This document shows positions 1-16,633 of a stretch of 22,781 nucleotides of DNA, in pieces; positions within the stretch are counted from its first letter, which is position 1; every line of letters begins with the position of its first letter. A model generated the notes under the pieces. That model did no database searches. It was not told the origin of the DNA and saw only the letters and a program-made list of their open reading frames with translations. A program made the translations under genes and the position numbers. This DNA is from an uncultured Alphaproteobacteria bacterium (lineage in GTDB: Bacteria > Pseudomonadota > Alphaproteobacteria > CBDUZE01). Location: NCBI GenBank assembly GCA_965371625.1, contig CBDUZE010000060.1, forward strand, positions 1 through 22,781. The letters are read 5' to 3'.

Positions 1-59
1 GCCTCTATGGCCTCGGCGCGACCAACTCGCGGGCGCTGTGCGAGGAGGTGGCGGGAGGG

Positions 60-145
60 GTCAGGTCTTGACTCTTATCGCATTGAGGCCACGGCGGCGC
101 GAACGCCCTGCGACTGGGAAAATGCGATAAGAGTCAAGACCTGAC
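60..145. repeat. Perfect 25-bp inverted repeat (arms 60..84 and 121..145) around a 36-nt GC-rich spacer; large hairpin overlapping the 3' end and stop codon of the minus-strand gene 134..784
   Basis: gtcaggtcttgactcttatcgcatt at 60..84 is the exact reverse complement of aatgcgataagagtcaagacctgac at 121..145. The spacer itself contains a short ggcg/cgcc stem. No U-tract follows on either strand. Confidence 0.7.
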
Positions 146-784
146 CCCTCCTGTACCCAGGGTCTTCGAGAGGAGCTCGGCGCACTTGGCGAGCGCGCTC
201 TCGATGGCCTGCTGGAAGGCCTCGTCCTCGCCCGCGCCACCGCCACCGCCACCGCCATTGCCGAGGGGGGCGCCATTGGTCTCGATGCTGAAGGCGAGGC
301 CGTCGGCCGAGCCCTCGAGCGCGCCGTCGGCCGAGCCCGCGGACGCCACCCGGGCGCGCCCGTACTGGGTCTTCGAGAGGTTGCGGTCGGCGAGGCTGAG
401 CTTGCAGCGGGCGACGACCTCGTCGCCCTCGCGGCGGCGCTCGGTGACCTCGAAGCTCCAGCCGTTGCCGAGACGCTCGTCGAGGAAGCGTTCGGTCTCG
501 GGCGAGAGCTCGCCGGAGGCCCGCGGCCGTGGCGCCGCCGCTCTCGGTCGGGCAGGGGCGGACGCGGCGGAGGCGGCGGGCGCGCGCGGCAACGGCGCCG
601 GCGGATTGGGCGGGGGTATGGGCGCGGTGAGGCCGGCCGGCTCGCGCTCGCGCGACGCTTCGGGCGGACGCTCGCGCGAGCGCCGCGGCCCGGTGCCACC
701 GGCGAGCTTCTCGAACTCCTTTCGGGTCTGCTCCAGCATCTCGTCGAAGGGCGAGGCGAAGCCGGAGCGCCGATCGCGGCCCAT
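134..784 (-). CDS. Hypothetical protein (216 aa) with a Rad52/Rad22-like motif (GNGWSFEV ... VVARCKLSL ... ALAKCAELL) and a Pro/Ala-rich linker; paralogous to the N-terminal extension of the HyuB ORF at 11695
   Basis: ATG at 784..782 is preceded by GGGGA (RBS) at 6-nt spacing, 11 bp after the stop of the upstream isochorismatase-family gene. The ORF runs to the stop at 134. The N-terminal helix FDEMLEQTRKEFEKLA and the core GWSxEV ... C.L motif align with residues about 10-130 of ORF 11695..13992. Confidence 0.55.
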   Translation of the reverse strand: MGRDRRSGFASPFDEMLEQTRKEFEKLAGGTGPRRSRERPPEASREREPAGLTAPIPPPNPPAPLPRAPAASAASAPARPRAAAPRPRASGELSPETERFLDERLGNGWSFEVTERRREGDEVVARCKLSLADRNLSKTQYGRARVASAGSADGALEGSADGLAFSIETNGAPLGNGGGGGGGAGEDEAFQQAIESALAKCAELLSKTLGTGGVRS

Positions 785-2875: not shown

Positions 2876-3205
2876 ATGTGCAGCCTGTGCGGGGTGCTCG
2901 GCGGACGCGCCCACTGGAGCGACCGCGCCGGCGCCGCGGATGGCGGCGAGCGCAGCCGCGAGGTCACCCGGCAGCGCGAGCGCCAGTGGCGCACCCGCCT
3001 CGCCAACCAGATCCTCGCGCACTACGGCCTCGCGCTTGCGGACTGGGCCGCGACCTCCTACGTGCTGCGCGGCCGCACCGGGCGCACCGCGCTGGTGGAG
3101 AACCTGAGCGAGCTGTGGCCCGCCGCCGAGGCCCTGGGAAAAAGGCCCTGCGACCCCCTCGACGAGGCCCTGCTCGCCGCCCTCGCGGGGCGCGGTGCCA
3201 AGTGA
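2876..3205 (+). CDS. Small hypothetical protein (109 aa, begins MCSLCGVLGG), immediately upstream of the COG0523 GTPase
   Basis: ATG 2876 follows GGAG at 4-nt spacing, 30 bp after the deacetylase stop. The stop at 3205 lies 13 bp before the COG0523 ATG. I recognise no domain, and high GC makes spurious ORFs common here. Confidence 0.35.
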   Translation: MCSLCGVLGGRAHWSDRAGAADGGERSREVTRQRERQWRTRLANQILAHYGLALADWAATSYVLRGRTGRTALVENLSELWPAAEALGKRPCDPLDEALLAALAGRGAK

Positions 3206-3218
3206 TCCGCCCGCCGCC

Positions 3219-4268
<1,050 letters not shown>

Positions 4269-4484
4269 AACGCGCACTCAGGAAACTCTGATGTTGACTT
4301 GTGCAACCAATGTCCGTCATCAGACGCAAAGCGGATTCTTTGGCCGAGATTGGTTTATATCTGCAATCGAGCCAACTCGGGCCGTGATGATCCATAATCG
4401 CCTTGTGAGGGTGGTACAAAAACCCTAATGATGTTAATGCCACCACTGACCTGAAATTTGATAATATATCACTCGTAGATCGGC

Positions 4485-6050
4485 ATGGGAGAGTTCGCTA
4501 AAATGGGTTTTTCGTCTGAAATTAGAGAGAATGCCCTCGTTAAAGCTGCACGGTGCTGCTGTGTATGTAGACGATTTAGGGGCGTTGGGGTAGAGGTACA
4601 TCACATTGTTCCGGCCTTGGATGGTGGCTCAAGCGATCTTGATAACGCGATTGTCTTGTGTTTCGACTGCCATTGTGCCGCAGGACATTATAATCCCAAA
4701 CACCCAAGAGGGACTAAATATAGCCCCAGAGAACTCCGTAGGCATAGAGATAACTGGTACAGATCCGTTGAAGAAGCAGGCGCTCAGCTGCGCGAGGACG
4801 ATGAATTTTCCGGTTATTACGGGCGGCATTTGATTTGTCTGGACAATGAAGCTGCACGCGATCTTATAGCGGCTAACAAGGACCAAATACCGTTTCGGTA
4901 CGATTACCTCTTAAAGAACGACGTCTTTCGGTTCATGGCCGAGGTTTTAGACGACAATTTGCCTTTTTCTTGGACAGGTTCCGATAATCAACTCGGCCAT
5001 TATAGGGGCAGAGGAGACTACAGTTCCCTGGAAGATTTCCACGATCAACACCCCGAGTTTGAGAAGCAATTCAGCCGTCCACTTACCGCAACAGACATTG
5101 TGGAAGGTGGGCTGGTTCCTTCCAAGATGATGCGTAAGATAGTAGATAACGGATTCCCTCCTTCTGAATTGGGGAAAGTATGCGCGGAAGTGGATGATTG
5201 TGGTGGAGGTGTATCGTATTTTGTTGCGATGCGGCGGCCGCTGTTTGTATTTGCAGAAATAAGGAACACCTCCTCGGAACAGTTTAGATTATCGGGATTA
5301 GTTACTCGAAAGGATAAAGACAGACCCTTTGTTTGTAAATTTGATGACTGGGATGAAGGCAAACTCGCTGCAATCCCATACGGGAATTTGGTATTAAATC
5401 CCGGAGAAGTCCTTCTCATTCCAGAATGTGTTCTGTTGAGCTCTCAAAACCACGACCCGTTAAATACCGAATTCGTGGAAATGGAGGACATGAGTCATGA
5501 ACAAATGCAAGCCGTCGGCTTCCGTACAACCGCCATGAAAGACGACTTCTATCGGTTTGGACCAGCGCTTAAGCTGGAAGGCTTCGATCTCGAAGTTGGC
5601 AACGAGATAAGGAACGTACCCATCCACAGGTTCGATCCTTCGAAATGCTATGTATACTACCGAGCATGGATGTGCGGAAGCTGTCCCCACTTGTACGTTT
5701 TCGACAAACATACCGGATGGAAATATCTGGGCGAGATCCTAGCGAAATCCACTAACAATGGATCGAGAACTGAGAGAGTGTCGATTCCTGAGGGCGTAAC
5801 AAGAATACGTATTGTTGAGACGGACTTCGAAATAACCCATATCGAAAGTATTGACTATAGGGATCAGCAACTAGTCGAGAGGCCCATCCGTTTGCGGCAA
5901 GGTGATTCCCTTGAACTGGAAGTTAATGGTCCAGGCATCCTTTCCGTGATTGGAAGATACCATGCACGAATCATGAGCCCTCGTTGTTACCTTCAATTAC
6001 GCCAGAAACTAAGTTTGCGGAGCGCTTATGAGCACACCGTTCTAGGATAA
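4485..6050 (+). CDS. HNH-nuclease-motif protein (521 aa) with a large C-terminal region I cannot assign
   Basis: N-terminal CCCVCRRF-x8-VHHIVP-x10-DNAIVLCFDCHCAAGH fits the C-x2-C ... HH ... N ... C-x2-C-H HNH signature. A second in-frame ATG at 4503, with GGAGAG upstream, is an alternative start. A -10-like gataat/taatat lies at 4460..4467. Confidence 0.75.
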   Translation: MGEFAKMGFSSEIRENALVKAARCCCVCRRFRGVGVEVHHIVPALDGGSSDLDNAIVLCFDCHCAAGHYNPKHPRGTKYSPRELRRHRDNWYRSVEEAGAQLREDDEFSGYYGRHLICLDNEAARDLIAANKDQIPFRYDYLLKNDVFRFMAEVLDDNLPFSWTGSDNQLGHYRGRGDYSSLEDFHDQHPEFEKQFSRPLTATDIVEGGLVPSKMMRKIVDNGFPPSELGKVCAEVDDCGGGVSYFVAMRRPLFVFAEIRNTSSEQFRLSGLVTRKDKDRPFVCKFDDWDEGKLAAIPYGNLVLNPGEVLLIPECVLLSSQNHDPLNTEFVEMEDMSHEQMQAVGFRTTAMKDDFYRFGPALKLEGFDLEVGNEIRNVPIHRFDPSKCYVYYRAWMCGSCPHLYVFDKHTGWKYLGEILAKSTNNGSRTERVSIPEGVTRIRIVETDFEITHIESIDYRDQQLVERPIRLRQGDSLELEVNGPGILSVIGRYHARIMSPRCYLQLRQKLSLRSAYEHTVLG

Positions 6051-6098
6051 TCCAACCAGGAGAAAGATGAAATAGCAAAGCAGTATTGGGTGATCTGA

Positions 6099-7148
6099 AT
6101 GAGTAACTTCGCGCTCTGCTCCAATTGCTTCCAGGATCAAGGGCTCAAACTTGATGCTCAACAGTTCGGTCTCGTTGAGAGCTCGACTTGTCCAAACTGT
6201 GGTTCGGAAACCGGGCAAAAGTTGAGCTCGGACTTGATCGGGCATCTTGCTCATAGGTATTTCGTTCGAGGAAGCCTTCATCGTTGTGACTACGGCGCTG
6301 CACCAATAATCCAATTTAATGACCGTCAACAGACGAGTATAGATACTTCCCCGTGGTTCGAGTCGGATGTGCGCCTTATCGAAAAGACACTTGGCGTTGG
6401 CTTCTTCTATTATGCACCAAGAATGTGGATGGTTGGCGAAATTGAACCACTAAAAGCATTGATAGAGCCGGAAACCAGGGCCTCAATGATACGCCGTACC
6501 TTAGCAGAATACCCGATCATAACACTGAAAACTGAGCAGGTATTTTACCGCATTCGGAAATCTCCAGCGGATCCGACTGATTTTAGCGAATATGATAGTC
6601 TACCGATTGTTAGGGCAGGCGCCGGTCGACTTGATTCTAAGGGATTTTCTGTAATGTATTGTTCTCAGGATCTGCAAGTTTGTATCCATGAGTGCCGCCT
6701 CACCGCAGAAGACGAACTTTTTCTAGCGACGCTCGCAGCAACGAGAGACCTGCGGCTGCTTGACTTAACTGAGGTGCTTGAGGAAGAGGGTGTAACTGAG
6801 TTCGAGAGCCTTGATATTGCCATTCACATGCTGTTTCTCGCTGGCGATTACTCTTACAACATCACGCGAGAAATTGCCATGGCTGCGCATACAGCAGGAT
6901 ATGATGGACTTGTCTATCCGTCGTACTTCAGTCTTCTACGTACTGGGGGAATACCATTTGAGACGTCGTATCGAATTTCACACCGAATAGTCCCCCGACT
7001 GGCGGAGAGAGAAGGATCAAAGATCATTCCAAATCTCGCTCTATTTGGACGACCGATAGAACAAAATATTGTCAAAGTACGATGCATCAACAAGGTAATC
7101 ATCAATAAAGTTGAATATGGCATCCATTTCGGACCAGTGGGGTACTAG
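6099..7148 (+). CDS. Zinc-ribbon plus RES-domain protein (349 aa); putative NAD+-targeting toxin-type effector
   Basis: N-terminal CSNC-x20-CPNC (Cys4 ribbon). The central region YRIRK ... GRLDSKGFSVMYCSQDLQVCIHE ... YDGLVYPS matches the order and spacing of the Arg/Glu/Ser RES signature. RBS GGTGA sits 5 nt before ATG 6099, 48 bp after the HNH gene stop. Confidence 0.7.
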   Translation: MSNFALCSNCFQDQGLKLDAQQFGLVESSTCPNCGSETGQKLSSDLIGHLAHRYFVRGSLHRCDYGAAPIIQFNDRQQTSIDTSPWFESDVRLIEKTLGVGFFYYAPRMWMVGEIEPLKALIEPETRASMIRRTLAEYPIITLKTEQVFYRIRKSPADPTDFSEYDSLPIVRAGAGRLDSKGFSVMYCSQDLQVCIHECRLTAEDELFLATLAATRDLRLLDLTEVLEEEGVTEFESLDIAIHMLFLAGDYSYNITREIAMAAHTAGYDGLVYPSYFSLLRTGGIPFETSYRISHRIVPRLAEREGSKIIPNLALFGRPIEQNIVKVRCINKVIINKVEYGIHFGPVGY

Positions 7149-7361
7149 CCAACAACTGTACTCTTCGTTTCAGTGAGCAACATTCCGATGCGGCTAGACT
7201 CAACCGTTTCACAAAAGCGCGAAAGTCCCTTCCTTGTTAGGAGCCGTGAATCGAAGGACTACTCGTGTAGGCCCCTTACCGCATGGAAGCGGACATCGGT
7301 GAGGCGTTTTCCAGAGCCGTCGACAAGGCGGTTAGCGGGTGCACGCCCTAGCCCCCGCCCC

Positions 7362-7454
7362 CTACGCCGAGGCCCTGGGCGGCGGCCGCCTGGGCTGCCA
7401 GCCCACCCGGAAGGCCCGCACCACGTGGTGCAGCACGTAAAAGAGGATGGCGAG
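7362..7454 (-). pseudogene. Truncated 3' fragment (last ~30 codons plus TAG) of a paralog of membrane-protein gene 8769..9293; left copy of an imperfect direct repeat
   Basis: The minus-strand translation of 7362..7454 reads LAILFYVLHHVVRAFRVGWQPRRPPPRASA* against ILAILFYLLHHVVRSFRVGWQPRRPPPRSSAGSSD* at the genuine gene end. A 33-nt identical core ggcggcggccgcctgggctgccagcccacccgg is present at both sites. Confidence 0.55.
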
Positions 7455-7582
7455 ATTCCGTGTTCACGATCGAATTCACGGCGTTCAGGTTTTGTACTTG
7501 AAGAGCGAATTGGCACGATTGGGTTCATCGAGTTTACTAAGGGCTACGTTGTTTCATGAGCTTGGGCGAAGGAGGTGCGGCA

Positions 7583-8701
7583 ATGGGCGATGTGAGACCG
7601 ATTCCCGAAGCCATGGCGGCCATGCTCCTGATGGGGCACGGTGGAATCGACAAGTTGGTCTATCGCGACGATGTGCCGGTGCCGAGTCCGGCGGCTGGAG
7701 AGGTCCTGATCGAGGTCACGGCGTGCGGCGTCAACAACACAGACATCTGGGTGCGCGAGGGCGCCTACGGAACCGAAGACGATCCCGACGCCGTATCTTC
7801 CTTTCAGCGAGGCGACACGACCTTGAACTTCCCCCGTATTCAGGGTGCGGACATCGTGGGGCGGATCGCCGTGGTGGGTGCCGGCGTTGCCGAAGGCCGC
7901 ATCGGTGAACGGGTCATGGTCGACTTCAGCATCTACAACCGCGGCGGCGATGGCCTGACCGATATGGACTGCGCCGATATGGATTACATCGGCCACGGGC
8001 GCAACGGCGGCTTTGCCGAGTTCACGACCGTGCCGGCCGACCAGGCCCACGTCGTCGATACCGACATGACGGATATCGAACTGGCCACCTTCTGTTGCGC
8101 CTACATGACCGGCGAACATTTGCTTGAACGCGCCAATGTTCAGGCAGGAGAGCGGGTTCTCGTGACAGGCGCGTCGGGCGGCGTGGGCTCGGGCGCGATC
8201 CAGCTCTGCCGGGCGCGCGGCGCCATTCCCATCGCCCTGACGAGCCGAGACAAGGCGGAGGCGGTCAATTCGATTGGCGCTGAGGCTGTCATCGTGCGTG
8301 GCGAGGGCGATCTGGTCGAAGCGGTGGAGGTCGCCACGGGCGGTGAACCCATGGATGTCGTCATCGATGTCGTGGCAGGCCCTCTGTTCAACGACCTGCT
8401 GCGCGTTCTGCGGCCGGAGGGCCGCTATGCAACGTGCGGAGCGATTGCCGATCCGGTCGTGCAGCTCGACCTCAGGACCGTGTATCTCAAACATTTGCAA
8501 ATCCATGGCTCCTCCCAGGGCACTCGTGCGGCTTTTCAGCGCCTGGTCCGATATATCGAGCAGGGAAAATTGAAGGCTTTGGTGGGCGGCATCTACAAGC
8601 TCTCGGACCTCCACCGAGCGCAGAGCGACTTTAAGGCCAAGCACTTCGTCGGCAAGCTGGTGGTGGTTCCGGACTCGAAATGGGACGAGGCGACAGGCTA
8701 G
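7583..8701 (+). CDS. Zn-dependent alcohol dehydrogenase / quinone oxidoreductase (MDR superfamily)
   Basis: GEVLIEVTACGVNNTDIW ... GADIVGRIAVVGAGV ... VLVTGASGGVGSGAIQL (Rossmann GxGxxG). GGAGG RBS at 7571..7575, 7 nt before ATG 7583. Confidence 0.85.
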   Translation: MGDVRPIPEAMAAMLLMGHGGIDKLVYRDDVPVPSPAAGEVLIEVTACGVNNTDIWVREGAYGTEDDPDAVSSFQRGDTTLNFPRIQGADIVGRIAVVGAGVAEGRIGERVMVDFSIYNRGGDGLTDMDCADMDYIGHGRNGGFAEFTTVPADQAHVVDTDMTDIELATFCCAYMTGEHLLERANVQAGERVLVTGASGGVGSGAIQLCRARGAIPIALTSRDKAEAVNSIGAEAVIVRGEGDLVEAVEVATGGEPMDVVIDVVAGPLFNDLLRVLRPEGRYATCGAIADPVVQLDLRTVYLKHLQIHGSSQGTRAAFQRLVRYIEQGKLKALVGGIYKLSDLHRAQSDFKAKHFVGKLVVVPDSKWDEATG

Positions 8702-8768
8702 GATCACGAACGAAAATGGTCGGGCCAAACCCTGGATGCGACGTCAACGCTCGTGACGGGTGCAGGCC

Positions 8769-9293
8769 CTAATCCGAGCTGCCCGCCGACGACCTGGGCG
8801 GCGGCCGCCTGGGCTGCCAGCCCACCCGGAACGAGCGCACCACGTGGTGCAGCAGGTAGAACAGGATGGCCAGGATCACCAGCACGATGATGGCGAGCAG
8901 CTTGGCGCCGAACACCGGGCCGATGATGGCGCCGCGGTTGATGAGGTGCTCGCCCAGCATCGCCACCGCCTGCAGGGTGGCGCCGGCGGCGAAGATCACG
9001 GCGATCAGGATCGCCACCTGAAGGGTATCGAAGACCAGGCCCTCGGCGTCGAGCTCGCCCGAGCCGCGGAAGATGTTGCGGCGGAAGGACTGCCAATGGG
9101 CGATGGCGTAGCCGATCACGCCGACCAGCGAGGCGAACCAGAAGATCACGTTCGAGAAATGGACCCGGGGGATGCTCGCGCTGACGAAGCTCTCGAAGGG
9201 CTGGTAGAAGTAGAGAAAGATCAGCAGGATGACGACGCCCACCAGGACGATCCAGAATCGCGGTCGCTGCCAGCTTGCCGTGTCTTGCGCCAT
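8769..9293 (-). CDS. Small integral membrane protein (~174 aa, about 4 predicted TM helices); function unknown
   Basis: Hydrophobic stretches FWIVLVGVVILLIFLYF, VIFWFASLVGVIGYAIA, VAILIAVIFAAGATL and LLAIIVLVILAILFYLL. Start assigned to ATG 9293 (MAQDTASW...). The longer upstream ORF extension is Pro/Arg-rich and implausible. Confidence 0.55.
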   Translation of the reverse strand: MAQDTASWQRPRFWIVLVGVVILLIFLYFYQPFESFVSASIPRVHFSNVIFWFASLVGVIGYAIAHWQSFRRNIFRGSGELDAEGLVFDTLQVAILIAVIFAAGATLQAVAMLGEHLINRGAIIGPVFGAKLLAIIVLVILAILFYLLHHVVRSFRVGWQPRRPPPRSSAGSSD

Positions 9294-9442
9294 TGCCTGC
9301 CCGGCCCCTGCGTAATCCGAGGCCCCGGATCGTATACCAAGCCCCGGCAAAAGCAAAAGCGGACGGCGCGCCTGGTCCCCGGCGCCGCGCTCGGGCGCGC
9401 CTGGACCGGGCGTTCGGCGCTTGGCGCCGCGCCCGGAGCGAG

Positions 9443-9471
9443 TTGACCGGACCTTAGGTCTCGGGGATGAT
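9443..9471 (+). promoter_or_regulatory. Candidate sigma70-type promoter for hyuA (-35 TTGACC 9443..9448, 17-nt spacer, -10 GATGAT 9466..9471)
   Basis: Hexamer spacing read directly from the sequence. The -10 is weak. Confidence 0.25.
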
Positions 9472-9624
9472 GGGGCGGCCGGTGTGTGCGCCCGGGTCAC
9501 GGCATGACCCAGGCAGGCTGGCGATCGCATGATTTCTTACCCCGCGTCCGCCGTTGGCGGCGGCGCACCGGTGCCGCGCCCGAGCGCGGCCGGGCGCGGA
9601 AATGGGAGGCTTGAGCAAGGCACC

Positions 9625-11691
9625 ATGGGCGGCCGCCTGGGGATCGATGTCGGTGGCACCTTCACCGACCTGCTGCTGTTCGACGACGCCACCCGTCGTC
9701 TCCACCTGCTGAAGACGCCGTCGACGCCCGAGGACCAGTCGGTCGGCATCCTCGTCGGCATCGAGAAGCTCTTGGCCGAGAGCGGCATCGCGGCCTCGGA
9801 GATCGAGGCCATCCTCCATGGCACCACGGTCTCGACCAACATCGTGCTCGAGGAGAAGGGCGCCAAGGTCGGCCTCCTGGTGACCGAGAACTTCGAGCAG
9901 GTTCTCCACCTCGCGCGCTCGCAGACGCCGGGGCCGCTGGCGGGCTGGATCACCATGATCAAGCCCGACCCGCTGGCCGACCTCGAGCTGACGCGGGGCT
10001 TAGCCGAACGCGTCAACGCCCGCGGCGAGATCGTCACGCCGCTCGACGAGGGCCGCGCCCGGGCCGCGATCCAGGAGCTGGTGGCGGCGGGCGTCGAGTC
10101 GATCACCGTCTCGCTCCTCCACGCCTACGCCAACCCCGCCCACGAGCAGCGCGTCAAGGCCATCATCGAGGACTTGGGCGTCGAGCTGCCGGTCTCGCTG
10201 TCATCCGAGATCCTGCCCGAGTTCCGCGAGTACGAGCGCACGCTGGTTGCGGTGATGAACGCCTACATAGGCCCCAGCATGCGCCGTTACCTGAGCAACT
10301 TCGAGGACAAGCTGCGCGCCATCCAGTTCTCGCCCCACGTCAGCATCGTCCGCTCCGACGGCGGTCTGATGAGCGTCGAGCGGGCTTCCGCGTCGCCGGT
10401 CCACACTATGGTCTCGGGCCCCGCCGGCGGGGTCTCGGGCGCCGCCTTCGTGGCCGCGCTGGCCGGCCACACCGAGGCGCTGGGCTTCGACATGGGCGGC
10501 ACCTCGACCGACGTCTCGATGATCCGCGAGGGCAAGCCGACGATCTCGCGCCAGACCACGCTCGGCTACTACCCGGTCAAGGTGCCTTCCGTTGAGCTCC
10601 ACAGCGTCGGCGCCGGCGGCGGCTCGATCGCCCACGTGCCGATGACCGGGGCGCTGCGCGTCGGGCCCGAGAGCGCCGGCGCGGTGCCCGGGCCGGCGTG
10701 TTACGACCGCGGCGGCGACCGCCCCACGGTGACCGACGCCAACGTCGTCCTGGGCCGCCTGCCGCCCAGCCTGCTCGGCGGCGAGATGGCCTTGAACGTC
10801 AAGGCGGCGGAGGAGGCGGTGGCCAAGATCGGACGCGCCCTCGGCCTCGACACCTACCAGGCCGCGCAGGGCATCCTCGATATCGTGAATGAGAACATGT
10901 TCGGGGCCTTGCGCCTGGTGACGGTGCAGAAGGGCTTCGATCCCCGCGACTTCGCCCTCGTCGCCTTCGGCGGCGCCGGGCCCATGCACGCCAACGCCAT
11001 CGCCATGCTGGCGGGCTGCTATCCGGTGATCGTGCCGCCGACGCCGGGCGTGCTCTCGGCCCTCGGCTTTCTCCATTCCGACGTCAAGAACGAGTTCGCG
11101 CGCACCTTCATCCGCAACCTCGACAGCGTCCAGCCCGGCGAGGTGATCGAGATCCTGACGCGGCTGGGCAGCGAGGCCAAATCCTGGCTTGGCGAAGAGG
11201 GCATCGAGAGCGGGCGCCAGCAGCTCCACTACGAGGCCGACGTGCGTTACTTCCGCCAGGGCTACGAGTTCGCCCTCGAGGTCACGCCCGAGGCCTTGAG
11301 CAACGGCGGGATGGGCGACCTCGAGGACCGCTTCGGCGTCATCCACGAGCGCCTCTACGGCTTCAGGCTGGAGGCCCCGGTGGAGCTGGTGAACCTGCGC
11401 GCCGTCGGCATCGGTCAGGTGGTGAAGGTCGAGTTCCCCAAGTTCGAGCTCGACGGCGCGGATGCCTCGGGCGCGGTGGTCGAGCAGCACCGGGTCTACT
11501 TCGACGGCAACTTCGCTCCCGTCAACATTTACGACCGCGAGCGCCTCGCCGCGGGCAACCGGATCTTAGGTCCGGCGGTGATCACGCAGAAGGACTCGAC
11601 GACCGTGATCCATCCCGGCCACGTCGGCGACGTCGACCCCTACCTCAACATCCTGATCCACCCGGAGGGCACGCCCCCCGGGGCACGGTGA
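9625..11691 (+). CDS. hyuA: Hydantoinase/oxoprolinase A subunit (N-methylhydantoinase A / 5-oxoprolinase family)
   Basis: Begins MGGRLGIDVGGTFTDLLLFD (the Hydantoinase_A N-terminal signature), with homology across the whole ORF. ATG at 9625. Confidence 0.9.
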   Translation: MGGRLGIDVGGTFTDLLLFDDATRRLHLLKTPSTPEDQSVGILVGIEKLLAESGIAASEIEAILHGTTVSTNIVLEEKGAKVGLLVTENFEQVLHLARSQTPGPLAGWITMIKPDPLADLELTRGLAERVNARGEIVTPLDEGRARAAIQELVAAGVESITVSLLHAYANPAHEQRVKAIIEDLGVELPVSLSSEILPEFREYERTLVAVMNAYIGPSMRRYLSNFEDKLRAIQFSPHVSIVRSDGGLMSVERASASPVHTMVSGPAGGVSGAAFVAALAGHTEALGFDMGGTSTDVSMIREGKPTISRQTTLGYYPVKVPSVELHSVGAGGGSIAHVPMTGALRVGPESAGAVPGPACYDRGGDRPTVTDANVVLGRLPPSLLGGEMALNVKAAEEAVAKIGRALGLDTYQAAQGILDIVNENMFGALRLVTVQKGFDPRDFALVAFGGAGPMHANAIAMLAGCYPVIVPPTPGVLSALGFLHSDVKNEFARTFIRNLDSVQPGEVIEILTRLGSEAKSWLGEEGIESGRQQLHYEADVRYFRQGYEFALEVTPEALSNGGMGDLEDRFGVIHERLYGFRLEAPVELVNLRAVGIGQVVKVEFPKFELDGADASGAVVEQHRVYFDGNFAPVNIYDRERLAAGNRILGPAVITQKDSTTVIHPGHVGDVDPYLNILIHPEGTPPGAR

Positions 11692-14077: not shown

Positions 14078-16633
14078 ATGTTGGAATTTGGCATAACGCT
14101 GCTGATCTCGGCGATCGTCGTCATCGCCATCGTCTACATCATCTCGATCTGGATCTACAAAAGGGCGCCCGCCAACATGGGCTTCATCCGCACCGGCTTC
14201 GGCGGCACCAAGGTGTGTCTGGGGCGGGGCGCCATCGTGCTGCCGGTCTTTCACGAGGTCTCCTGGATCTCGCTCGAGACCATCAAGCTGATCGTCAGCC
14301 GCTCGCGCGAGCAGGCCATCCTGACCTCGGACAACATCCGTGTCGACGTGGTGGCCGAGCTCTACGCCCACGTCGGCCACACCGAGGACGACCTGCTGAC
14401 CGCGAGCCGCAGCCTGGGCGAGAAGACCTTCGACGCCGACAAGGTGCGCAACTTGCTAGAGGCCAAGGTGGTGAGCACGCTGCGCTCCTACGCCGCGACC
14501 AAGACCTTGAATGAGCTCCACGAGAACCGGGACACCTTCGCCAAGGACATCAAGGCCAGCGTCGTCGAGAGCTTCCAAGCCAACGGCCTGGCCCTCGAGG
14601 AGGTCACGATCGTCACCCTCGAGCAGACCTCGAAGGAGCACTTCAACCGCGACAACGTGTTCGACGCCGAGGGCCTCAGGATCATCACCGAGATCACCTC
14701 GAAGGCGCGCCGCGAGGTCCACGACACCGAGAAGCGGACCATCGTGTCGTTGCGCCAGAAGGACCTGGATACCCAGCTCGAGCTGCTCGAGATCGAGCGC
14801 CAGGAAGCTTTCGCGCGGGCCGGCCAGGACAAGGACATCTCCAACGAGGAGGCGCTGCAGGTGGGGCGCAAGCAGATCTTCGTGCTCGATCAGCAGAAGG
14901 CGGTGGAGGAGAAGGAGATCGAGAACGAGCTCGAGTTGGAGCGCAGGCGCACCGAGCGCGAGATCTCGATCACCGAGGAGGGACAGCACCGCGAGGCCTC
15001 GGAGATCCGCAAGGCGCTCGCCTTGGAGCAGGAACGCCGCGACAAGGAGATCGCCATCATCGCCAAGGCCAAGGAGGAGGAGCTGGCCGAGATCGCCCGC
15101 GGCCTGGCCCGCGAGGGCGCCGAGAAGGAGCGCGACGTCGAGCTCGCGCACAAGGAGCGGGAACGCCAGCAAGCCGACATCGATCGCGTCACCGCGGTCG
15201 CGGGCCACGAGGAGACGGCCAAGGACAAGCGCCATCAGGCCGAGATCGAGAGCGACCTTTCGATGCGCAGGCGCAACCTCGAGAACCGGCTCGCGGTGCT
15301 CGATATCGAAAAGGAGGAAGCGCTGGCCACGGCCCGCCAAGAGCACGACGTCTCCAACGAAAAAGCCCGCGTGCTCAGCGAGAAGCAACGCTACATCCTG
15401 CAGCAGCGCTGGGAGGTCGAGCAGGAGGAGATCGACAAGGACCAGGCCTTCGAGAAGGCGCAGATCAACAAGGAGGCCTCGGTGATCGACGAGGGCAAGA
15501 CCCGCGAGGCGGCCGAGATTCGCCGCGCCCTCGCCCGCGAGCTCGAGGAGCGGGAGCGCGAGATCGCCCTCATCGCCAAGGAACAGGAGCGCGAGAAGGC
15601 CGATATCCGCCGCTTCCTGGCGCGCGAGACCGAGGAGCGCGACCGCGAGATCGCGCTCGCCGACAAGACCCGTCAGCTCGAGGAGGCGGAGGTCAAGCGC
15701 CTCAAGTCGAGCGCCGAGCGGGAGCAGGTCGAGCACGAGGTCGAATCCGTGCGCATCGTCGCCGACGCCCGGCGCGACAAGGACATCGACCGCATCGAGG
15801 CCGAGAAGCTCGCCGAGAGCCGGCGCATCGAAGAGGAGAACAAGGCCCAGATCAACCGCATGCACATGGTCACCCAGTCCGAGGCCCGCAAGCTCTCGGC
15901 CGAGCGCGAGGCCGATGCCACCCTGATCAGGGCCAAGGCCACCAGCGAGGCCCAGGAGATCACGGCCGTAGGCATCGAGCGCGAGGCCGGCGCCAAGGGC
16001 CGGGCCGAGATGGAGATCGAGGGCCTGCGCGTCGAGAACACCCAGCGCATGCTCGAGGCCGAGGCCACAGGCATCGAGGCCAAGGCGACGGCGCTCAAGA
16101 ATTACGACGAGGTCGCCACCTTCCTCGAGCTCGCCAAGCTCCACATCGAGGCCGAGCGCGACATCCACATCGACCAGGCCAAGGCCATGGGCAACGCGCT
16201 GCAGCACGCCCAGATCCGCATGTACGGCGGCGAGGGCGGCACCGTCGACACCATCCGCGGCATGTTCACCACCGGCTTCGGCCTCGGTGAGGTGCTCGAG
16301 GGCGTGGCCCACTCGCTGCCCGACGGCTTGCGCGAGCGCTTCGCCGAGAACGGCCTCAGGGGCATCTTCGGCCGCCCCTACCGCTCCAGCGCCTTCCACG
16401 ACTCGGTCGAGCTGCTGGACGGGCTGGTGCGCGAGGCGATGGGCAGCGCCAAGGAGCGCGACGTGCCCTTCGCCCAGGCGGTCGCCCTCATGGAGGAGAA
16501 GGCCGGCGACGACGAGGCCCGGGTCAAGGCGGTCGAGCTCTTGAAGGAGATCAACGAGCACGGCGTCTTCGACGACGTCGCCTTCGAGAAGGTGTGGGCG
16601 CTCCTGCAGGCCACCGCCAAGTCCTCCGGGTAA
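14078..16633 (+). CDS. yqiK: Flotillin/YqiK-family SPFH (band-7) membrane protein, 851 aa, with an internally duplicated coiled-coil region
   Basis: N-terminal TM helix, then GFIRTGFGGTKVCLGRGAIVLPVFHE ... TIKLIVSRS ... IRVDVV and TSKEHFNRDNVFDAEGL, nearly identical to motifs of E. coli YqiK. Two divergent tandem ~100-aa coiled-coil units (LEIERQEAFARAGQDKDISNEEAL ... and LDIEKEEALATARQEHDVSNEKAR ...). Confidence 0.9.
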   Translation: MLEFGITLLISAIVVIAIVYIISIWIYKRAPANMGFIRTGFGGTKVCLGRGAIVLPVFHEVSWISLETIKLIVSRSREQAILTSDNIRVDVVAELYAHVGHTEDDLLTASRSLGEKTFDADKVRNLLEAKVVSTLRSYAATKTLNELHENRDTFAKDIKASVVESFQANGLALEEVTIVTLEQTSKEHFNRDNVFDAEGLRIITEITSKARREVHDTEKRTIVSLRQKDLDTQLELLEIERQEAFARAGQDKDISNEEALQVGRKQIFVLDQQKAVEEKEIENELELERRRTEREISITEEGQHREASEIRKALALEQERRDKEIAIIAKAKEEELAEIARGLAREGAEKERDVELAHKERERQQADIDRVTAVAGHEETAKDKRHQAEIESDLSMRRRNLENRLAVLDIEKEEALATARQEHDVSNEKARVLSEKQRYILQQRWEVEQEEIDKDQAFEKAQINKEASVIDEGKTREAAEIRRALARELEEREREIALIAKEQEREKADIRRFLARETEERDREIALADKTRQLEEAEVKRLKSSAEREQVEHEVESVRIVADARRDKDIDRIEAEKLAESRRIEEENKAQINRMHMVTQSEARKLSAEREADATLIRAKATSEAQEITAVGIEREAGAKGRAEMEIEGLRVENTQRMLEAEATGIEAKATALKNYDEVATFLELAKLHIEAERDIHIDQAKAMGNALQHAQIRMYGGEGGTVDTIRGMFTTGFGLGEVLEGVAHSLPDGLRERFAENGLRGIFGRPYRSSAFHDSVELLDGLVREAMGSAKERDVPFAQAVALMEEKAGDDEARVKAVELLKEINEHGVFDDVAFEKVWALLQATAKSSG

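Follow-up and report, generated by a model that had tools for sequence, protein, structure and literature searches.

How a metabolic gene came to lie between two copies of the end of its neighbour is the question raised by a 22,781-nt contig (CBDUZE010000060.1, assembly GCA_965371625.1) of an uncultured Alphaproteobacteria bacterium, the whole of which is referred to here as the window. In it, an alcohol dehydrogenase (ADH) gene is bracketed by two copies of the 3′ end of memb, a membrane-protein gene: copy B ends the gene itself, whereas copy A (fragA) stands on the far side of ADH, towards a cobW-family GTPase gene and next to an AT-rich island with HNH and RES genes. A first-pass annotation had read this arrangement as the scar of a site-specific integration. 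The comparison of the locus with its relatives bears out the insertion, and it suggests that the new DNA probably entered by recombination anchored on memb homology, with an illegitimate (homology-facilitated illegitimate recombination, HFIR) or a Campbell-type second step, and not through an integrase.

The imperfect direct repeat of about 90 bp was found as first described, with 81 of 90 nt identical between 7365-7454 and 8784-8873 by repeat search and direct count (blastn-short, E = 3e-26). Its identical core, initially given as 33 nt, is actually 39 nt long (7374-7412 = 8793-8831), and a further run of 19 identical nt comes after it. When 4000-9400 was compared with itself at high sensitivity, this 87-90-nt pair alone was returned; as ADH is moreover single, a simple tandem duplication was rejected. 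The similarity between the copies passes the stop codon and reaches about 7338/8757, with a 2-nt indel, and on the copy A side it extends to 7318 when the memb 3′ end and spacer of close relatives are used; at the other end it stops abruptly at 7454-7456/8873-8875. The C-terminus of the membrane protein, encoded in copy B, is LAILFYLLHHVVRSFRVGWQPRRPPPRSSAGSSD followed by the stop, and the minus-strand translation of copy A is LAILFYVLHHVVRAFRVGWQPRRPPPRASA, also followed by a stop. As a stop codon adjoins copy A directly upstream and a start codon is absent, copy A is a dead fragment; the live gene ends in copy B, which is 94-96% identical to the orthologous 3′ ends in the sister-lineage contigs L066, L069, L071 and L072.

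Three details of the first description held only in part. Copy A does have an in-frame TAG (7362-7364), but this lies four codons ahead of the position aligned to the real stop (7348-7350), and the tail that holds it differs from the tail in the closest relative. ADH does lie between the copies, although not flush with them, as 128 nt and 67 nt of non-coding DNA separate it from either one. Copy A does abut the island, but the right boundary of the island, defined against the closest relative, falls inside copy A, at 7373/7374.

This relative, L070, is the one that tells the two ends apart. In the protein database, the closer relatives of memb showed 86-95% identity, and the 90% cluster around P0121, which includes memb of the window, has a member (P0250) encoded on L070; this contig of 3831 bp belongs to another ENA assembly record (ERZ26661859). 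Exact look-ups with the memb (174 aa) and ADH (381-aa open reading frame, ORF) products of the window gave no match; in the cluster, its own proteins are P0254 and P0255. From window position 10514 to 7374, L070 shows 98.5% identity, and it then runs straight into cobW (L070 3165-3830, aligned to window 4267-3605). The genes of L070 therefore read hydA-memb-67 nt-ADH-128 nt-fragA-cobW, and the HNH/RES island is absent (hydA and hydB are the hydantoinase A and B genes). The fragA of L070 is intact, with all 35 codons of the end (LAILFYLLHHVVRAFRVGWQPWRPPPRSSSPGSSD plus stop), and its TAG overlaps the TAA of cobW (TTAG), as the two stops do at relatives with an empty site and as would be expected of a displaced native end. 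The ADH-fragA junction at 7454/7455 is kept. It follows from this arrangement that fragA is the ancestral end of memb, still in its ancestral place, that copy B plus the 67-nt spacer is a replacement end, and that the state with ADH between two ends is older than the split of the window and L070 lineages. The proposal that an insertion had separated the gene body from its old 3′ end is therefore supported, the live gene carrying a replacement end and the old one being left as a fragment beside cobW in L070.

Scans of genome and metagenome collections with memb provided 62 related loci from uncultured Alphaproteobacteria and Rhodospirillaceae-like metagenome-assembled genomes, in which memb is 60-76% identical. 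The protein matches no Pfam or NCBIfam family, and its 649 homologues at E<=1e-10 are all about 170-180 aa long. The gene order ABC-band7-hydB-hydA-memb-cobW-deacetylase-isochorismatase is kept in the 62 loci, and in 16 of them only 1-49 nt separate the stops of memb and cobW, which are convergent, or the stops overlap. Such a close tail-to-tail arrangement is the empty site and the ancestral state, which is what the suggested comparison of synteny had been meant to look for; as empty sites exist, the relatives do not show the unbroken conservation that would have refuted an insertion. More than 600 bp of other DNA was found 3′ of memb in 22 of the 62 loci, and in 18 of these cobW follows at a distance of 1-4 kb. 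The inserts are of native GC content and hold unrelated genes (hydrolase, NACHT-like ATPase, acyl-CoA synthetase, SDR, MFS transporter, methyltransferase), in agreement with the predicted insertion hotspot, and no homologue of ADH, HNH or RES was found across the 62 loci. In the cargo of the 22 occupied relatives, searches for a memb 3′ fragment (blastn-short with their own 3′ ends; tblastn with all C-termini) gave chance-level hits only, and no integrase-like ORF was present. Because 22 loci are occupied by unrelated genes without a memb 3′ fragment, the memb/cobW junction is a recurrent gene-gain site, and partial duplication is not its general feature. One of the cargoes at this hotspot (L003, 10876-14346) encodes a 1156-aa NACHT-like P-loop protein with repeats of about 30 aa (AALEALAEKWPDEATRDLLTERAVQD).

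The ADH gene itself starts at 7583 behind a GAAGGAGG ribosome-binding site, ends at 8701 and is convergent with memb. Its homologues at 96%, 88% and 80% identity lie in unrelated contexts. The closest one, on the 1262-bp contig L064 (96.6% nucleotide identity), shares with the window only the stretch 7566-8702: the 82 nt downstream in L064 are not similar to the window (282/500 shuffles), and 5′ of the gene only the 17-nt ribosome-binding region is significantly similar. On L063, which carries the 88% homologue, imperfect palindromic elements of about 120 nt, similar to repetitive extragenic palindromes (REP) or miniature inverted-repeat transposable elements (MITE), flank the genes at 154-276, 1547-1710 and 2955-3081, one in each intergenic region. 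In the window, the low-GC DNA between fragA and ADH contains an imperfect palindrome, CCGTGTTCACGATCGAATTCACGG at 7460-7483, which is kept in L070 and could be an operator or a relic of an earlier cargo.

The contigs L066, L071 and L072, about 95% identical to the window, have memb, copy B and the 67-nt spacer in common with it, and their homology is lost at exactly 8701, the ADH stop codon. Beyond this point, they show a 318-nt spacer and then a convergent homocysteine-methyltransferase-like gene. ADH is thus either the founding cargo or a later substitute for an earlier cargo between pre-existing anchors. The start of the spacer behind copy B was also considered as a remnant of a cobW 3′ end, and discarded as not significantly similar (840/2000).

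The HNH/RES island was resolved by the same comparison. With respect to L070, the window has 3105 bp (4269-7373) in place of 24 nt of the fragA tail; the right break coincides with the edge of the 39-nt core (7373/7374), and the left one follows directly after the cobW stop. When scored against 1000 shuffles, the 56 nt from 7373 to 7318 were significantly similar to the memb tail plus spacer in L066 (score reached by 2 shuffles) and in L071 (by none), and to the stop of copy B with its spacer (by 1), but not to the fragA tail and cobW of L070 (by 277); blastn alignments of L066, L069 and L072 reach 7318. This segment, absent from L070, was taken as the right end of the island, and the window therefore carries two successive memb-end remnants, 7374-7454 and 7318-7373. 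Because L070 has ADH and fragA without the island, the latter is an event separate from ADH, in line with one of the options of the first-pass annotation, that of two successive events. It also appears to have arrived with its own memb tail and spacer, given that 7373-7318 matches the sister-lineage tail and spacer and not the fragA tail of L070. The opposite polarity is possible, in which L070 would have recombined with an allele of the empty-site type and so lost the island, and the same mechanism would be implied.

At the left edge of the island, cobW of the window is 9 nt (3 codons) shorter than that of L070, 15-18 nt before the stop (4250-4254) and beside the junction, so that it ends in ...GAAGSLRSA and stop, versus ...GAAGASSRVRSA and stop in L070; a second indel, of 6 nt, is located at 3928-3933. 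Entry of the island by a crossover inside cobW was rejected, since it is these two indels that lower the BLAST identity to 95.7%, while substitutions are at background (14/663) and form no tract. The idea that the island is flanked by a target-site duplication of 6 bp (GYGCAC) was superseded by the boundaries based on L070, and a similarity between 4269-4400 and 7251-7349 was not significant (279/500 shuffles). The nearest homologue of the HNH protein is 64% identical, and apart from weak HNH hits the HNH/RES module matched no PADLOC family. A scan of viral contigs found a RES homologue (62%) on the IMG/VR contig L073, in which the HNH neighbour is absent. The pair may be an uncharacterised toxin or defence pair.

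An assembly artefact has to be weighed at this junction. A chimera formed within the 39-nt core could have joined a strain with memb-ADH-fragA-cobW to another with memb (tail PRASA and stop)-spacer-island-cobW, in which case ADH and the island would adjoin in no real genome. The window is one metagenome contig, the breakpoint with L070 lies exactly at the edge of the identical core, 7373-7318 resembles a normal memb tail plus spacer, and the island was found in no other contig. We nevertheless consider a chimera unlikely: the distance to L070 is the same on either side of the junction (substitutions of about 2.1% in cobW and of about 2% in hydA plus memb), and common assemblers finish with k-mers longer than a 39-nt repeat. 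A chimera would in any case leave the repeat that brackets ADH untouched, and L070 reproduces this repeat independently.

With these junctions at hand, the site-specific integration originally proposed could be examined. In that explanation, an integrase, since lost or acting in trans, would have inserted the cargo into the memb 3′ end by means of an attP that mimics the gene end, and the two copies would be attR and attL. An element that had integrated and restored its target gene would have exactly this topology, as direct repeats bracket the insert and copy B completes memb; empty sites exist (the 16 loci above), and the site is repeatedly occupied among relatives. The 39-nt identical core with imperfect arms is a look that att sites also show, and an integrase in trans or already lost would be compatible with the sequence. 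However, neither Pfam, PADLOC nor NCBIfam searches detected integrase, recombinase, resolvase or transposase domains between cobW and memb, where the ORFs from 4269 to 8768 gave only HNH, RES and ADH, and the 128-nt and 67-nt spacers are too small to encode one; searches for tRNA genes and Rfam families found none. Reuse of the same core by related insertions was not seen either, as memb fragments and integrase-like ORFs were absent from all 22 occupied relatives. Furthermore, the cargo joins the memb tail and spacer at three different positions (ADH at +67, the island remnant at about +30, and the sister lineage with no interruption), which argues against a fixed crossover site, and the cargo of the relatives consists of metabolic genes of native GC content. 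Site-specific integration was consequently not upheld, and an integrase origin of the scar is judged improbable. An integron gene cassette was also discarded, as no integrase, no inverted-repeat element flanking ADH in the window and nothing in Rfam was found.

The differences between the two copies provide a further line of evidence. The nine differences within the window fall at codon position 3 (six) and position 1 (three), with none at position 2; P(none at position 2) = 0.026 and P(>=6 at position 3) = 0.042. As they avoid position 2 and favour position 3, the pattern points to copies that diverged while both were coding, and not to a fresh duplicate with one copy decaying. In the window and in L070, fragA has CTC, CGG and GCC (Ala), where all the close relatives have CTG, CGC and TCG (Ser), and the GCC Ala state is found again in more distant relatives. 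Over the 81-nt core, fragA and copy B show 5-7 differences, about as many as the 4-6 between memb of the sister lineage and copy B. The two ends thus look like alleles of closely related lineages, or an old duplicate, that would have been joined by recombination.

These data also bear on a duplication in place, in which the last 35 codons of memb would have been duplicated by slippage or unequal exchange, the copies would have diverged, and ADH would have been inserted independently. Among the sampled sequences, the two copies are indeed each other's closest (74/81 identical in the window, 76/81 in L070). In contrast, the bias in codon position would not be expected of a copy that had been a decaying pseudogene since its origin, fragA has retained an ancestral Ala codon at a site where all members of the close clade have Ser, and the DNA downstream is different, with the 67-nt spacer after copy B and the overlap with cobW after fragA in L070. 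As it also requires two independent events at one spot, a duplication in place seems very unlikely.

Divergence from L070 is not even along the locus. There are 6 differences in 7583-9038 versus 34 in 9039-10514 (Fisher p = 7e-6), so that the divergence of hydA and the 5′ part of memb is about five times that of ADH, the spacer and the 3′ half of memb. In non-coding DNA, 9 of the 209 nt of 7374-7582 differ, near the 3.8% of the non-coding 9294-9528. This distribution indicates that a tract of about 1.5 kb containing ADH was shared recently between both lineages, as expected if the cargo moves by homologous recombination via its flanks. Consistent with a homologous anchor on this side, copy B and the body of memb are collinear with the relatives and 94-98% orthologous.

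We therefore return to recombination anchored on memb and to the steps by which it may have proceeded. In the ancestor, memb and the cobW-family gene lay tail to tail with almost no spacer. The cargo came in linked to a memb 3′ end and to a short spacer behind it, and this replacement end (copy B plus 67 nt) now ends the live gene, whereas the original last 35 codons (fragA) were pushed outward, untranslated and still joined to cobW. Two routes can be envisaged. In an HFIR event, DNA of a related strain would be anchored in memb and joined illegitimately at 7454/7455; in a Campbell-type event, a circularised fragment carrying one copy of the memb 3′ end would enter by a single crossover. Either one would yield repeat-cargo-repeat without a recombinase and would leave the native end in place. 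For the island, fragA could then have served as homologous anchor and the best conserved part of the memb 3′ end as the place of the join, and later cargo swaps may have used memb, the spacer, fragA and cobW as anchors.

Several points weigh against this scheme, beyond the att-like look of the core and its compatibility with a lost or external integrase. Neither a donor arrangement (memb-spacer-ADH without fragA) nor an intact A-type memb beside cobW at high identity was found. At 7454/7455 no microhomology could be recognised from the sequence of the locus alone, so that the illegitimate step is an inferred one. As copy B and the spacer are common to sister lineages at ordinary divergence, they may have been inherited vertically, with the duplication older than ADH. 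Finally, the island junction could be a chimeric assembly join, since it lies at the edge of a 39-nt sequence common to all memb alleles and is seen in one metagenome contig only.

A prediction of the repeat structure is that the 1419-bp ADH unit could be lost by RecA-dependent recombination between the two copies, through their 39-nt core. From this, a more speculative proposal can be derived, to which we give little credence: that the unit (ADH, spacer and one memb 3′ end) is an integrase-free mobile cassette. It would loop out by RecA action between the copies, be transferred (e.g. by transformation or gene-transfer agents) and re-enter by a single crossover at a memb 3′ end, which would act as a portable attachment site. 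If this were true, the ADH-spacer-memb 3′ tract would owe its low divergence from L070 to such spread.

Recombination anchored on memb has known counterparts. HFIR has been defined (PMC3240628) and, together with 'orphaned 3′ regions', proposed for type VI secretion system (T6SS) and Rhs arrays (PMC5361080). As in the HFIR of Acinetobacter, Pseudomonas stutzeri, Streptococcus pneumoniae and E. coli conjugation, one end is anchored by homology, here in memb, the other is joined without it, here at the abrupt loss of similarity at 7454/7455, and foreign DNA is trapped beside a conserved gene with no need for a recombinase gene (PMC3240628; PMC5361080). What differs here is the 105-nt duplication of the end of the anchor. 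HFIR experiments gave mostly short inserts, and recipient DNA was usually deleted.

In Rhs, CdiA and T6SS effector-immunity arrays, a new 3′ end with linked genes is likewise placed onto a conserved body, the old end remaining as an untranslated orphan (PMC5361080), and repeated events build arrays, as the two memb-end remnants in a row do here. In those systems, however, the 3′ ends are distinct toxins and the cargo is the cognate immunity gene, whereas here the ends are about 90% identical, functionally equivalent tails of a small membrane protein, and neither ADH nor HNH/RES has an evident link to memb. With no toxin end and immunity cargo at this locus, its assignment to these orphan arrays was rejected. 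Islands and prophages integrated at the 3′ ends of tRNA or protein genes also show a 3′-end repeat that brackets the insert, an intact gene and an empty site, but here integrase and fixed crossover are lacking, and the insert is 1.4 kb with a single metabolic gene. Campbell-type insertion-duplication, as with suicide plasmids, gives homology-insert-homology, in which the duplicate equals the homology carried by the circle, and is reversible between the repeats. Here, by contrast, no circular intermediate or replicon is known, and 105-137 nt of homology at about 90-95% would be a poor substrate.

The coordinates of all features are collected in Table 1.

Table 1. Features of the window around the memb/cobW junction, from left to right.
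Feature	Position	Strand	Description
Isochorismatase gene		minus	Left end of the gene order
Polysaccharide deacetylase gene			Between isochorismatase and cobW-family GTPase genes
cobW/CobW_C-family GTPase gene	3195..4268	+	Pfam cobW, CobW_C; left flank of the hotspot
AT-rich island	4269..7317	+	GC 0.47; HNH gene and RES gene
HNH-domain protein, 521 aa	4485-6050	+	Pfam HNH; HNH motif N-terminal
RES-domain protein, 349 aa	6099-7148	+	Pfam RES
Second memb tail and spacer remnant	7318..7373	-	Fused to fragA core; blastn and shuffle tests
fragA core, 27 codons	7374..7454	-	LAILFYVLHHVVRAFRVGWQPRRPPPR; displaced memb 3′ end, untranslatable
Non-coding DNA 5′ of ADH	7455..7582	+	128 nt, GC 0.49; palindrome at 7460-7483
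ADH, 372 aa	7583..8701	+	Zinc-type medium-chain dehydrogenase/reductase; Pfam ADH_N, ADH_zinc_N, ADH_zinc_N_2
Spacer, memb stop to ADH stop	8702..8768		67 nt, GC 0.61; common to sister-lineage contigs
Copy B	8757..8875	-	Live memb 3′ end: last 35 codons plus about 12 nt beyond the stop (8769-8771)
memb, 174 aa	8769..9293	-	Multi-pass membrane protein; intact gene; adjoins hydantoinase A/B genes
Hydantoinase A, hydantoinase B, SPFH/band-7 protein and ABC transporter genes			Beyond memb, right side

GC content is 0.70 in cobW and hydA, 0.66 in memb and 0.63 in ADH, and drops to 0.49 in the 128 nt 5′ of ADH and to 0.47 in the island (4269-7317). Scans of 7100-9400 for consensus promoters and terminators returned nothing relevant. 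Some observations concern other parts of the contigs. At the start of the window (54-151), 31-nt arms (GGAGGGGTCAGGTCTTGACTCTTATCGCATT) form a perfect inverted repeat around a spacer of 36 nt. The 851-aa SPFH/band-7 gene has diverged direct repeats of 87 nt (29 codons) at 14972-15658, and the matching region of L069 likewise gives internal self-hits. In L069, which is a 96%-identical relative, the hydantoinase A gene (7160-9297) matches in two pieces, residues 1-143 and 157-720, and was called as only 536 aa, which suggests a frameshift or an assembly error.

Taken as a whole, the locus is an ordinary, well-resolved scar of integrase-free gene gain, and it reveals no new mechanism. Its lesson is that an integrase-borne island should not be deduced from a repeat of a gene 3′ end alone. 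Two genes whose stops touch or overlap can receive a third one between them, and neither of them is broken, when the incoming DNA supplies a spare end; the old end stays because it is physically part of the terminus of the neighbouring gene. As metagenome contigs capture four states of the site (empty, with ADH only, with ADH plus island, and a sister lineage with other cargo), the locus offers a clean natural example of how genes can be gained without an integrase at a recombination hotspot of uncultured Alphaproteobacteria.

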